A stretch of 64,000 nucleotides of DNA from a virus: positions 32,001 through 96,000 of the IMG/VR virus record IMGVR_UViG_3300018022_000003; one strand, written 5' to 3'. The notes beneath the pieces were generated by a model that ran no database searches, had not been told where the DNA came from, and saw only the letters and a program-made list of their open reading frames with translations. A program made the translations under genes and the position numbers. Shown one piece after another: positions 17,443 through 27,368 of this stretch (positions are counted from its first letter, which is position 1; each line of letters starts with the position of its first letter).

Positions 17443-17802
17443 ATGCGCTACGAGGTCCCGGGAGCAGGCTACTACGAGAGGGCCCACAACGATGCCGACA
17501 AACAGGTGAACGCCGAGCTGATACGGCAACTCCTGTACTTCAACCTCGGGCACCCAAGGGGCGACGACCTGTGGGTGCTGTTGGGCAACGACTTTTCTCT
17601 CCATCCCCTTGGACAGGAGGGCCTGAAGAACGCAACCAACCTCCTGCTGGGCAGGGCACCAAGGAACATGGCCTGCGGCTGGGCGCTGCGCATGCTCTAC
17701 AGGCTCCTGACGGTCGGCGTAGGCTCGTTCCAGCGCAACATGCTGTGGACCCTTACCCTGCCCGAGCGCTGCCGCAGGGCATGGTGGCGCATAGTATTCT
17801 AG
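17443..17802 (+). CDS. Hypothetical protein
   Basis: ORF within the operon. Confidence 0.55.
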   Translation: MRYEVPGAGYYERAHNDADKQVNAELIRQLLYFNLGHPRGDDLWVLLGNDFSLHPLGQEGLKNATNLLLGRAPRNMACGWALRMLYRLLTVGVGSFQRNMLWTLTLPERCRRAWWRIVF

Positions 17803-17807
17803 GGTAT

Positions 17808-19769
17808 ATGATGACAGGATTCGACTTCCTGAACGAGGAGCAGCTAAGGGCGGTAGCCCACCCGATGGGCAGGCCAGCCTGCCTCATTGCCGGGGCAGGG
17901 TCAGGCAAGACCGCCACCATCACGGCAAGGGTGGCCTGGCTGATGGAGAACGATGTCCCCCCCTTCCGCATCTGCTGCATCACCTTCACCAACAAGGCGG
18001 CCGGCGAGATAGCCCGCAGGGTAGGGCTGGCGGACTCCGCTCCCGCAGAGTCCAGGCCCCATATATCGACCATCCACTCCCTGGCCCTCAACGCCATCCG
18101 CAGGGACCCCGAGGGCTTCGGGTTCGAGGGGAAGGTCACCCCCATGGACGACTACGACCAGGCGCAGATGTGCAAGAAGCTCATCGAGCGCATGCCCCAG
18201 GAGATGGGCATGGAGATGAACGCTTACCGCTTCCTGGAGAAGCTGGCCTACCACCGTGCCCGTGGGGTAGGGTTCTCGGACGGCTATACCGAGGAGGTCC
18301 ACGAGGAGGCCCTGGAGCACCACAAGGGGTACCATGCCCTGGAGGACTGGGAGGCAAGGCTCTGGAGGCTGTTCGAGGAGGAGAAGCGCAAGTGCGGCAC
18401 GGTGGACTTCGACGACATGATTCACCTGGTGGTACGCCGAGGTGAGGCCGAGGATGCCTGGAGGGCCGCCCTCCAGCGGCGTTTCCACCACGTCCTCCAG
18501 GACGAGAGCCAGGACACCAGCCCCGTGCAGTGGAGGTTCGTCAACCTCCTGCTCGGGGACGACAATCCCAACCTCTACTGCGTCGGCGACCTGGCGCAGA
18601 GCATCTATGCCTTCCAGGGGGCCGAGCCACGCCTGCTCAAGGAGTTCAGCGAGGGCTGGCGGGGGCACGTGCCGGACCTCTACCGCATATCCCGCAACCA
18701 CCGCAGCCTGCCCTCCATCATCAGGCTGAGCAACAAGATTAACGCCGCCATGACGGAGGTCATCCCGCTCAGGATGATGCCCTTCCGGGGCCTCGGGCCG
18801 GACGGCGGGGAGGCGGAGTCGGGGCTTACCAGGATAATCAGGTCCAGCATGCCCTCTGACATAGCCGCCGTCATAGCCAAGGAGATACAGCACGACAGCC
18901 AGCTCAAGAAGGCCCCCCTGGAGTACAGGGACAACGCCATCCTGGTGCGCAGCGCCATCCAGGTGAGGGACGTGGAGGGGGCGCTGGTGAGGCTCCGCAT
19001 CCCCTACATAGTCCGGGGCGGCAGGGGCCTCCTCCAGACGGAGGAGGTGAAGGACATCCTCTCCTACTTCAGGCTGGCCGTCAACCACAAGGACTTCCCG
19101 GCCTTCGTGCGTGCCGTGGGGGTCCCGAAGAGGGGCATCGGGGACGTGGCCATCGAGAGGCTCCGCAGCCAGGCCAGCGAGGAGCACGGCGGGGACCTGG
19201 TCGAGGCATGCACCTCCATGGACAAGCTGGACGTGTTCTACAGCAACATGTCCCAGGTCACGGCCATGCTGGACGACCCGGCCGCCGCCATGGAGGCCCT
19301 GGTCAGGCTGTTCGGGTACAAGGACTACATCTCCGGCAAGTACCGCCGTGAGGAGAGCAAGGCGAGGGCCAAGCACGAGAACATAGACCGCTTCCTCTCC
19401 CTGGTGCGGTCCCTTGCGGACGAGGGGAGGACCTCCGAGGACCTGGTGTTCCACCTTGCCATGGACAGGCCCTCCGACGACGGGGAGGAGGAGGATAAGG
19501 GGGCGGTCACCGTCTCCACCATCCACAGCGCCAAGGGGCTGGAGTGGCGGCGGGTGTATATTACCAATGTGACGGAGGGGTCGCTCCCCCATAGGTTCAG
19601 CATGGGGAGCCCGTCCGAGGTAGAGGAGGAGCGTCGGCTGTTCTACGTCGCCTGCACGAGGGCGAAGGACAGCCTTGCCATATGCGTGCATTCCCTGGAG
19701 CCCCGTGGGCCCAACACCCTCTCGGTGGCCCCGAGCAGGTTCCTGGGGGAGGTGGGCATAAGGACCTAG
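17808..19769 (+). CDS. uvrD: UvrD/PcrA/Rep-like superfamily 1 helicase
   Basis: AGAGSGKT, ITFTNKAA, QDESQD, VGDLAQSIYAFQGA, STIHSAKGLEW and EERRLFYVACTRAK. Confidence 0.95.
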   Translation: MMTGFDFLNEEQLRAVAHPMGRPACLIAGAGSGKTATITARVAWLMENDVPPFRICCITFTNKAAGEIARRVGLADSAPAESRPHISTIHSLALNAIRRDPEGFGFEGKVTPMDDYDQAQMCKKLIERMPQEMGMEMNAYRFLEKLAYHRARGVGFSDGYTEEVHEEALEHHKGYHALEDWEARLWRLFEEEKRKCGTVDFDDMIHLVVRRGEAEDAWRAALQRRFHHVLQDESQDTSPVQWRFVNLLLGDDNPNLYCVGDLAQSIYAFQGAEPRLLKEFSEGWRGHVPDLYRISRNHRSLPSIIRLSNKINAAMTEVIPLRMMPFRGLGPDGGEAESGLTRIIRSSMPSDIAAVIAKEIQHDSQLKKAPLEYRDNAILVRSAIQVRDVEGALVRLRIPYIVRGGRGLLQTEEVKDILSYFRLAVNHKDFPAFVRAVGVPKRGIGDVAIERLRSQASEEHGGDLVEACTSMDKLDVFYSNMSQVTAMLDDPAAAMEALVRLFGYKDYISGKYRREESKARAKHENIDRFLSLVRSLADEGRTSEDLVFHLAMDRPSDDGEEEDKGAVTVSTIHSAKGLEWRRVYITNVTEGSLPHRFSMGSPSEVEEERRLFYVACTRAKDSLAICVHSLEPRGPNTLSVAPSRFLGEVGIRT

Positions 19770-20459: not shown

Positions 20460-20904
20460 CCTGTTCCCGTCCATCCTCCTCGGCCACATGGTGGGGGACT
20501 ACCTCCTCCAGAACAACTGGATGGCGATGAACAAGGGCGGCAGCACCCTCAAGTGCGCCGTCCACTGCCTCATCTACACATGGGCCGTGGACATCTTTAC
20601 CTACCCCTTCTTCCACCATGACTGGCGGTGGCTGGCCCTGGTCTTCCTGAGCCACTTCCCCATCGACAGGTGGAGCCTGGCGGACAAGTGGCTCAGGCAC
20701 ATAGGCGGCAGGTCCATGACCAGGTTCATGGCCGACGGGCACAAGAACATCCCGGCCGAGGCCGAGGGGGAGGCGAGCGAGTACCGGAACTACCATGCCC
20801 TGCGGGCAGGGTTCACCAGCCTCGTATACGCCGCCGCCGACAACACGATGCACCTCGTAATCCTGTACTACAGCGCCCTGCTCCTGCTGGGCAGTAATAG
20901 CTAG
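20449..20904 (+). CDS. DUF3307-like membrane protein
   Basis: LLGHMVGDYLLQ, AVHCLIY and SHFPID. Confidence 0.7.
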   Translation: MRPDLFPSILLGHMVGDYLLQNNWMAMNKGGSTLKCAVHCLIYTWAVDIFTYPFFHHDWRWLALVFLSHFPIDRWSLADKWLRHIGGRSMTRFMADGHKNIPAEAEGEASEYRNYHALRAGFTSLVYAAADNTMHLVILYYSALLLLGSNS

Positions 20905-20906
20905 GC

Positions 20907-21767
20907 ATGACCCACGGCTCGCTGTTCTCCGGCATAGGCGGCTTTGACCTCGGGTTCGAGCGTGCAGGGATAGGGACGTCCTGGCAGGTGGAGAACAGCC
21001 CGTCTGCTACGAGGGTCCTGGAGTCCCATTGGCCGGAAGTGAAGAGGTATGGCGATATACGTGGATGCGGACGGCACAATCTTGCCCCTGTTGACCTCGT
21101 CAGCGGGGGGTTCCCCTGCCAGGACCTCAGCACCAGCCAGAACGGAAGGAGATGGGGCCTTGCCGGGGAGCGCTCCGGGCTGTTCTTCGAGGCTGCAAGG
21201 GTTATTGAGGAGCTTAGGCCTCGATGGTTTGTTCTTGAGAACGTCAGAGGGCTCTTCTCTTCGCATGAGGGTGAGGACTTCGACGTCGTCGTCTCGGCGC
21301 TGGCAGAACTCGGGTATTGCGTGGCTTGGAGAACGCTGGATAGCCAATACTTCGGCGTCCCCCAGCACAGGGAGCGGGTGTACGTTGTTGGCGGCCTTGG
21401 ACACGGGGGCCCCGTCCTCGTACTTTTTGAGGGACTCCCGAAGGCTGAACCGGGTAATGCTGGAGAGGCACCTCCACAAGCCGTGGTGCCAGTGGCTATT
21501 AACCCATATCAGCACGGTTCCAACGGGGTCGGCATCTCTTACGTGGTCCACACCCTCGACTCAAGGCCCGACAGGGTGGTGCTTGCGCCTCTTGACGGAG
21601 GAAGAGTGGGAGGCCCTCCAGGGGTTCCCCGGCGGATGGACGTTGCCCGCACAAGGCTCGTCGGCAATGCCGTGACGGTGAACGTGGCGGAGTGGCTGGG
21701 CCGCAGGATTGCGGCCCTGGACGGGTGTATACTAGGGGGGGAGGAGACACATGTATCCATTCTCTAA
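20907..21767 (+). CDS. DNA (cytosine-5) methyltransferase, alpha-type polypeptide lacking motif IX
   Basis: SLFSGIGG (I), GGFPCQ (IV), ENV (VI), QHRERV (VIII) and GNAV (X). Confidence 0.92.
   Translation: MTHGSLFSGIGGFDLGFERAGIGTSWQVENSPSATRVLESHWPEVKRYGDIRGCGRHNLAPVDLVSGGFPCQDLSTSQNGRRWGLAGERSGLFFEAARVIEELRPRWFVLENVRGLFSSHEGEDFDVVVSALAELGYCVAWRTLDSQYFGVPQHRERVYVVGGLGHGGPVLVLFEGLPKAEPGNAGEAPPQAVVPVAINPYQHGSNGVGISYVVHTLDSRPDRVVLAPLDGGRVGGPPGVPRRMDVARTRLVGNAVTVNVAEWLGRRIAALDGCILGGEETHVSIL
21049..21675 (+). CDS. Nested alternative-frame beta polypeptide of the C5 methyltransferase, carrying motif IX
   Basis: Ends with LRLLTEEEWEALQGFPGGWT, the motif IX consensus R-LT-RE--RLQGFP--W. Confidence 0.7.
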   Translation: MAIYVDADGTILPLLTSSAGGSPARTSAPARTEGDGALPGSAPGCSSRLQGLLRSLGLDGLFLRTSEGSSLRMRVRTSTSSSRRWQNSGIAWLGERWIANTSASPSTGSGCTLLAALDTGAPSSYFLRDSRRLNRVMLERHLHKPWCQWLLTHISTVPTGSASLTWSTPSTQGPTGWCLRLLTEEEWEALQGFPGGWTLPAQGSSAMP

Positions 21768-26077: not shown

Positions 26078-26293
26078 ATGAAGAACATAAGGCTTGAGGT
26101 GCCGCCCATTAGGCAGAAGAGCATCGAGACGTGCATAGCGACGCTGACCGTCGAGACCGAGGACGGGCGCACCATCCGCAAGGAGCTGGACTTCAGCGGC
26201 AACGCCATCGGCCCGGTGAGGTACGGCGCACGCCTTGTCGTCCAAGCGCTGGCAGAGGCGCAGGCAGAGGAGGGGGTTAATGGACAGGCCTAG
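26078..26293 (+). CDS. Hypothetical protein
   Basis: ORF within the operon. Confidence 0.55.
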   Translation: MKNIRLEVPPIRQKSIETCIATLTVETEDGRTIRKELDFSGNAIGPVRYGARLVVQALAEAQAEEGVNGQA

Positions 26294-27368
26294 CTTCGGG
26301 GTCATCGTGGGGAGGTTCCAGTGCCACGAGCTTCACGACGGGCACATGGAGCTGTTCCGCATCGTGCGTGGCCGCCACAGCCGGGCAATCGTGTTCCTGG
26401 GGTGCAACAGGGTCGGCCCCACCCGGCACGACCCCCTGGACTTCGAGACACGCAAGCGCATGATTCAGGCGAAGTTCCCCGACTTTACCGTCCTTCCCCT
26501 CAGGGACAAGAAGACCGACGAGGAGTGGAGCAGGGAGCTGGACTCCCGCATCTCCGACGCCGTGGGCGAGGTGCCGGCCGAGGTCGTGCTCTACGGGAGC
26601 CGGGACAGCTTCGCCCCGTTCTACCACGGCTCGCACCCCGTCAAGGAGCTGGAGCTGCTCAACGTCCCCAAGGCGCTCAGCAGCACGGAGGTACGTGCCA
26701 TCCTGACCAACACTGTCATGGAGTCGGCGGACTTCCGGGCGGGGGTCATCTATGCCATGGGGCAGCTATGGCCGAGGGTCGTCACCGTGGTGGACATCGC
26801 TGTCGTCCACAAGTGCAGGTGGGGGCCTGCCGGGGCCTCTGTGCCTGGGCTGTGCGTCCTGGTCGGCAAGAAGTCCGACGATGTCCTCTGGCGGTTTCCT
26901 GGCGGGCATGCACTCTTCACCACCGACTCCTTCGAGGCAGACGCCAAGAAGGAGGTCTTCGAGGAGACAGGCCTGGATGTCTACAGCATCGAGTATGTCG
27001 GCTCCCGCAGGGTGGATAGCTGGCGCTGGAAGTCCGAGCCTTCCGAGGGCTACAAGACCCTGTTCTTCGTCGCCGAGAGCATGACGATGGGCGGGCACGG
27101 GGCGGACGACCTCCCCGTGACCCAGTGGTTCCGCCTCGACGACCTGACCGAGGACGATATCGAGAAGGAGCACAAGCCCCTCTTCAGGATGCTTGTCGGC
27201 CACGTCACCGGGAAGTGGGGCTACACCCTGAGGCCACTAGGGGGATGGCGACCCGGCGAGACAGAGGCCAGCATGCCATATGCTGCTACCCCTCTTGCCA
27301 ACATCATAGCTCCCCCGGCACTGATATATACAGAAGGAGACAAGAATGCCGCAGCCGTTGAGGATTAA
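26280..27368 (+). CDS. nadM: Bifunctional NMN adenylyltransferase / Nudix (ADP-ribose pyrophosphatase), NadM-Nudix type
   Basis: GVIVGRFQ..ELHDGH (HxGH), LYGSRDSF and SSTEVR; C-terminal Nudix FPGG...AKKEVFEETG. Confidence 0.9.
   Translation: MDRPSFGVIVGRFQCHELHDGHMELFRIVRGRHSRAIVFLGCNRVGPTRHDPLDFETRKRMIQAKFPDFTVLPLRDKKTDEEWSRELDSRISDAVGEVPAEVVLYGSRDSFAPFYHGSHPVKELELLNVPKALSSTEVRAILTNTVMESADFRAGVIYAMGQLWPRVVTVVDIAVVHKCRWGPAGASVPGLCVLVGKKSDDVLWRFPGGHALFTTDSFEADAKKEVFEETGLDVYSIEYVGSRRVDSWRWKSEPSEGYKTLFFVAESMTMGGHGADDLPVTQWFRLDDLTEDDIEKEHKPLFRMLVGHVTGKWGYTLRPLGGWRPGETEASMPYAATPLANIIAPPALIYTEGDKNAAAVED

Follow-up and report, generated by a model that had tools for sequence, protein, structure and literature searches.

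A phage gene that probably encodes a two-chain DNA (cytosine-5) methyltransferase in two overlapping reading frames

Single-chain DNA (cytosine-5) methyltransferases carry motifs IX and X after the variable region in one polypeptide. The locus described here, at 20907-21767 of a 64,000-nucleotide stretch of viral DNA (the whole stretch is called the window below), departs from this order: its main frame, alpha, has motif X, and motif IX is found in the +1 frame, in a second ORF, beta. This raises the question of whether the two frames encode the two parts of one enzyme. The window belongs to an IMG/VR virus record of 127 kb with an estimated completeness of 41%, figures that point to a probable jumbo phage. 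The features of the locus are as follows.

20907-21767, plus strand: coding sequence of alpha, 286 aa, with motifs I-VIII, a conserved variable region, a Gly/Pro-rich linker and motif X
21035-21048, plus strand: Shine-Dalgarno-like purine run before the beta ATG, in which GGAAGTGA lies 6 nt upstream and AAGAGGT adjoins the ATG
21049-21675, plus strand: putative coding sequence of beta, 208 aa, in the +1 frame and wholly within the alpha gene
21105-21131, plus strand: alpha motif IV with the catalytic Pro-Cys-Gln (PCQ), residues 67-75
21298-21513, plus strand: conserved middle of beta, residues 84-155, over bases that also encode alpha motifs VII-VIII and the beginning of its variable region
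21583-21642, plus strand: motif IX as encoded by the +1 frame (beta residues 179-198); in the main frame this stretch encodes the alpha linker
21663-21686, plus strand: alpha motif X (GNAV...), residues 253-260, with the beta stop inside it

Judged by motifs I, IV, VI and VIII in one chain (PF00145 / TIGR00675), alpha is a C5-methyltransferase. Within its ORF of 861 bases, motif I was read directly at residues 7-12, the ENV of motif VI at residues 111-113, and motif VIII (QxRxR) at residues 153-162. The conserved variable region contains a Thr-Leu dipeptide (T216-L217), and residues 230-245 form the Gly/Pro-rich linker at the site where single-chain relatives have motif IX. PF00145 of Pfam matches alpha residues 2-162 only (E 3e-51), TIGR00675 of NCBIfam matches with E 2e-50, and alpha residues 5-161 align with residues 16-169 of M.HhaI (E 1.5e-22), with an additional weak match at motif X. 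The N-terminus of alpha agrees with those of its relatives P0001-P0006. A reading of this DNA made earlier from the sequence alone had listed motifs I, IV, VI, VIII and X in the main ORF and had noted the absence of motif IX there; the directly read motifs, Pfam and the alignment with M.HhaI all bear this out. It had also found motif IX at the same nucleotides in ORF 21049-21675, and beta residues 179-198 confirm it.

The beta stop codon, TGA 21673-21675, falls within alpha motif X. Beta residues 17-204 align with the +1 ORFs of about 20 other viral loci (E 1e-14 to 1e-21), and in the alignment used for beta (A2) the conserved middle contains the invariant or nearly invariant columns W85, S88, G89, G94, W97, S102, L113, L117, P122 and L127. 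Searched as a whole, beta gave no match in Pfam or NCBIfam, and its C-terminal 72 aa reached only E = 0.15 against PF00145, below threshold. In PHROGs, alpha covers positions 208-391 of phrog_116 and beta covers positions 424-462. Another PHROGs family, phrog_16143 (139 positions, annotated 'DNA methyltransferase'), matches beta residues 49-128 at the same profile positions, so this family may consist of beta-frame proteins picked by gene callers. Beta-frame proteins are sometimes called in metagenomes as well: 989 matches were listed at E ≤ 0.001, most of them devoid of a Pfam domain.

The relation of the two frames to a single-chain enzyme is seen most directly with a profile of single-chain relatives, which matches the locus in order, in three pieces. 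Profile positions 1-206 match the main frame, positions 266-337 (in L081, a diverged relative of the locus; 314-334 in the window) match the +1 frame, and positions 339-362 once more match the main frame. The match of the +1 frame at motif IX has an i-E of 1e-6 in the window and 8e-10 in L081. From this order it follows that the distal part of the variable region and motif IX stand in a frame shifted by one base from that of the remainder of the enzyme. Single-chain Dcm-type enzymes (P0016, P0023 and M.HhaI; PF00145 / TIGR00675) share motifs I-VIII and X with alpha; the aligned single-chain sequences are 46-52% identical to alpha and have a variable region of similar length. They differ in that their motif IX shares the frame of the remaining protein, and many of them keep an open +1 ORF that does not contain motif IX. 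A resemblance of beta residues of about 165-175 to the Thr-Leu region of single-chain enzymes was considered and found not compelling, the main frame being the constrained one at alpha codons 201-222.

An open second frame of this length may arise by chance in GC-rich DNA, and the window DNA has a GC content of 62%. Openness was therefore tested by shuffling synonymous codons of alpha. The +1 stretch of the window gene is open for 210 codons with a shuffle P = 0.006; two antisense frames of the same gene are open for 218 and 200 codons as well. With antisense frames of such length and a shuffle P of only 0.006, the openness of the +1 frame in the window is by itself weak evidence. The earlier statement that both frames are open for over 600 nt is thus true, but it says little in DNA of this composition. 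L081, with a GC content of 0.45, is far more informative: its +1 frame is open for 203 codons (shuffle P = 0.0004), whereas its other four frames are open for only 43-79 codons. The antisense ORFs, e.g. 20901-21551 on the minus strand, were accordingly rejected as genes and regarded as artefacts of GC content, as their 200-218 codons shrink to 43-79 in L081.

A search of 5.8 billion proteins placed alpha in a small clade, P0001-P0007, of 64-97% identity. None of the clade members has motif IX in the main frame, whereas the next aligned relatives (46-52% identity) all have it; the absence of an in-frame motif IX holds for all six full-length clusters (P0001-P0006). The members P0002-P0004 and P0006 were assessed from the protein sequence, by asking whether it permits motif IX in the +1 frame. 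Together with the others, six of the six sequences P0001-P0006 permit it at the aligned site, against 0.16 sites per shuffled protein. A clade-specific DNA pattern led to three loci in metagenome contigs (L081, L082 and L083); it had no match in viral contigs, and a slightly relaxed form of it had none in genome contigs. Neither plasmids (tblastn) nor E. coli genomes (blastn) yielded a close relative of the gene. L082 and L083, which come from two other metagenome assemblies and show 97% amino acid identity, have the same two-frame layout, and so does L081, at 64% amino acid identity and a GC content of 0.45. In the window and in all three loci the +1 frame opens from the same nucleotide (CDS nt 136). 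As the layout is kept in three other loci and permitted in the remaining full-length clade proteins, sequencing error and private mutation are excluded as its source.

Both frames are constrained. The codon-level comparisons were made between the window and L081, and since DNA was available from only two effectively distinct clade members, their power is low. At alpha codons 223-246, which underlie motif IX, and likewise at codons 181-200, third-position differences amount to 0.25, against 0.64-0.71 in the flanks. Of the alpha codons that specify the same amino acid in both sequences, 10 of 12 are identical under motif IX, compared with 15 of 38 beyond the bounds of the beta ORF (p = 0.009). 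Amino acid identity is higher in the +1 frame than in the main frame at alpha codons 181-200 (0.74 vs 0.65) and 223-246 (0.70 vs 0.54), and higher in the main frame at codons 201-222 (0.82 vs 0.29). This alternation of the better-conserved frame along the gene indicates that both frames are under protein-level selection. The dual-frame constraint in homologs that the sequence-only reading had proposed as a check is present between the window and L081, both in the synonymous codons and in the alternating identity. The first 75 or so residues of beta are supported by openness only, with 23% identity between the window and L081 and no excess at synonymous sites.

Beta would be translated separately from a start of its own, as suggested by the region around its ATG. 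The TGA at 21040-21042, within the purine run, closes the +1 frame upstream of beta, and ATG 21049 aligns with a Met conserved across the family. The nine bases AAGAGGTAT (window 21042-21050) are identical in L081, where the ATG comes 6 nt later. In alpha they encode Lys-Arg-Tyr; the AGG and TAT codons used there seem atypical of GC-rich DNA. The identity of AAGAGGTAT between the 62% GC window and the 45% GC L081 hints at selection on a ribosome-binding site for beta. In 11 more distant related loci, GGAGGT followed by 8 nt and an ATG is found at the aligned Met, and in five of these 11 the +1 frame opens just two codons 5' of that ATG. In the window the strongest Shine-Dalgarno-like element is only 1 nt from the ATG, and the GGAGGT of the family is not kept at the aligned position. 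Although the internal ATG at beta residue 139 is conserved in L081, this codon was rejected as the start, for it lacks a Shine-Dalgarno sequence and would leave 138 upstream open codons unexplained.

To see how the two chains might fit together, we predicted the structure of the complex using alignment A3 for alpha and A2 for beta, together with three controls. The ipSAE values were 0.85, 0.86 and 0.84, compared with 0.00 for the best control. Among solved complexes 58 of 80 attain this mark, and among mismatched pairs 2 of 110 do. The runs have no less than 66% of their contacts in common, and the partner pLDDT was 59-60. In the predicted complex, beta residues 187-193 of motif IX contact alpha residues 252-259 (motif X) and alpha residue 15 in the region of motif I, while beta residues 84-121 pair with alpha residues 138-153, and within this region beta 88-91 with alpha 138-143. 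The prediction supports binding of alpha to beta, although part of its score may reflect likeness to solved single-chain C5-methyltransferases, in which motifs IX and X adjoin. Folded alone, beta is not predicted with confidence (mean pLDDT 39.9, pTM 0.21); this would agree with a chain that needs its partner in order to fold, but it proves nothing.

From these results, a hypothesis regarding the enzyme may be put forward: the locus probably encodes a two-chain DNA (cytosine-5) methyltransferase, a single stretch of DNA being read in two frames. From the main frame would come alpha, which comprises the catalytic large domain (motifs I-VIII), the variable region with its Thr-Leu, the Gly/Pro linker and motif X. 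The +1 frame would give beta, begun at its own ribosome-binding site and ATG 21049. In beta, the poorly conserved first 80 or so residues would be followed by the conserved middle, packing on the motif VII-VIII strand of alpha, and the C-terminal 25 or so residues would form motif IX, placed against alpha motifs X and I. Motif IX of beta would in this way complete the fold that single-chain enzymes build from one chain, and the activity would belong to the assembled pair.

Several natural and engineered enzymes bear on this hypothesis. In M.AquI (CYCGRG), a natural two-polypeptide C5-methyltransferase, the protein is split after motif VIII and the small subunit carries motifs IX and X, whereas in the phage gene alpha keeps motif X and the whole of beta is nested. 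The chains of M.AquI are encoded one after another, with a short overlap only. Artificially split M.HhaI and M.SssI demonstrate that separately made pieces of a C5-methyltransferase assemble into an active enzyme; these are engineered, and their fragments lie on separate genes, not in overlapping frames. The same layout as that of the phage gene occurs in M.EcoHK31I (E. coli HK31, YGGCCR), which has a large chain with motifs I-VIII as well as X and a nested small chain with motif IX, and which is the single documented enzyme of the alpha/beta nested design. As the sequence-only reading had correctly stated, its beta chain has motif IX, and the coding sequence of beta lies entirely within the alpha gene, in a different frame; alpha has motifs I-VIII, the TRD and motif X; both chains are required for activity, and N-terminal deletions of beta weaken the association (PMC2836561, PMC3404938). 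Its beta chain is long, about 23 kDa (PMC2836561), compared with 208 aa in the phage, and in both motif IX lies far from the N-terminus. The alpha chain of M.EcoHK31I, of about 38 kDa, is larger than the phage alpha of 286 aa. M.EcoHK31I belongs to a bacterial restriction-modification system, whereas the present gene is an orphan of a jumbo phage, and the likeness between them is one of architecture. By this layout, the phage gene appears to be a real alpha/beta dual-coded orphan methyltransferase of the M.EcoHK31I kind, with putative translation of both chains and putative activity.

The surroundings of the gene are consistent with an orphan enzyme. Its same-strand neighbours include a UvrD-like helicase (17571-19769), a DUF3307 membrane protein, several unknowns and a NUDIX / cytidylyltransferase-like protein. 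The last of these (26235-27368, plus strand) has 377 aa, with a cytidylyltransferase-like N-terminus and a NUDIX domain, and its sequence is read as that of a NadR-like NAD salvage enzyme; such enzymes occur in large phages. Within about 5 kb of the gene no restriction endonuclease family was recognised, the neighbours including proteins of no known family, which agrees with the earlier statement that no cognate endonuclease is evident nearby. With no partner endonuclease recognised there, the enzyme would most likely methylate the phage's own DNA against host restriction. By analogy with known phage methyltransferases, the neighbourhood fits an orphan enzyme that would protect phage DNA.

To find out how far the layout extends, 80 viral loci were retrieved with alpha, with identities of 33-51% and GC contents of 0.37-0.68; among the related loci of viral contigs, none exceeded 51% identity to alpha. 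A long open +1 stretch is present in all 80 (110-382 codons), whereas in the +2 frame the open stretch is as a rule just 20-60 codons long, and the shuffle P is 0.01 or less for most of them. Motif IX is found solely in the +1 ORF in 49 of the 80 loci, and 48 of these 49 have motif X in the main frame; in 18 of the 80 motif IX is in the main frame, and 13 were not assignable by motif pattern. The description of the locus as a rare phage dual-coding design therefore stands as regards the layout and the viral (IMG/VR) origin, but not as regards rarity.

The relatives with motif IX in the main frame retain the second frame as well. In sixteen of them (L001-L009, L011, L014, L020, L034, L043, L046 and L086) the +1 ORF has 128-233 codons and a conserved sequence, and in some main-frame-IX relatives the ATG of the +1 ORF stands directly after a stop. 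The +1 ORF of the viral main-frame-IX loci is significantly open, with a shuffle P of 0-0.01 in the AT-rich members (L086 was outside this test). In L086 (1023-2030), the DNA methylase USN16280.1 of Brevundimonas phage vB_BpoS-Papperlapapp has a 135-codon +1 ORF with the conserved middle of beta. The phage from which the window comes has, outside the window, a second Dcm-like gene (G000:C1:123221-124057; L085 1492-2328), 46% identical to alpha residues 2-166 and lacking an in-frame motif IX. Its nested +1 ORF (L085 1664-2647) is open for at least 225 codons and has a motif-IX-like end, MMIPTGW; a further beta-like ORF just downstream (L085 2818-3498) has a YPTP motif and an LMGFP motif IX. As the main-frame-IX relatives keep a significantly open +1 ORF with a conserved middle, the nested gene may predate the split. 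The chances seem to us about even that the nested +1 gene is an old, family-wide partner of phage Dcm-type methyltransferases and that motif IX switched frames: in this clade, and in most related viral loci, it would have passed from the catalytic chain to the C-terminus of an overprinted protein already present, or in the opposite direction.

The same relatives provide the best argument for a different function of beta. If a significantly open +1 ORF with the same middle is kept where the main frame has motif IX, the nested protein has a role independent of carrying this motif, and beta might be a real and conserved regulator, specificity modulator or other partner of an alpha that works alone or is inactive. 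We consider this unlikely, as within the clade beta has a well-conserved motif IX that alpha lacks, the predicted complex sets this motif where single-chain enzymes have it, and M.EcoHK31I requires both of its chains for activity. A single chain might also be made by recoding, with ribosomes entering the +1 frame ahead of motif IX (near 21575-21585) and returning to the main frame once past the motif (near 21645-21660); the collinear main, +1 and main path seen against single-chain relatives is just what such a product would read. Recoding, however, would require some 25 open +1 codons, far fewer than the 205 or so that are maintained downstream of a conserved start preceded by a Shine-Dalgarno sequence, and no slippery or stall motif was seen by eye at either junction. 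We know of no precedent for two programmed shifts in one short gene, and we regard this explanation as very improbable.

Finally, the layout might be an artefact of assembly indels, or a relic, in which a compensated frameshift displaced motif IX to the wrong frame, where it would be decaying and non-functional, and a GC-rich window would by itself be expected to have long open alternative frames. We give this explanation hardly any credence. Three independent assemblies and the 64% identical relative of very different GC content keep the frame structure, which excludes the two compensating indel errors that the sequence-only reading had named as its possible undoing; moreover, the bases of motif IX are better conserved in the +1 frame than in the main frame, and motif IX stands only in the +1 ORF in 49 of the 80 related viral loci. 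The two-chain enzyme encoded in two frames is thus the explanation that we favour.

Very few long same-strand overlaps are known in which both products belong to one enzyme, and M.EcoHK31I has so far been treated as a curiosity. Our search of the literature found no paper describing this layout as widespread in phages, nor one on nested genes in phage cytosine methyltransferases. The present gene and the 49 of 80 viral loci suggest that the layout is a standard phage way to encode cytosine methyltransferases. Since gene callers report one of the two chains, such genes would be annotated as complete or 'truncated' methylases and the partner chain would be lost, with consequences for the prediction of methylomes, for work on phage anti-restriction and for designing split methyltransferases. 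The family also lends itself to the study, in a natural setting, of how constraint is divided between two frames, with a nested frame that persists where it is not needed for motif IX. If the nested gene is indeed an old partner of the whole family, a large proportion of the cytosine methyltransferases of phages would turn out to be two-chain enzymes that have gone unrecognised.
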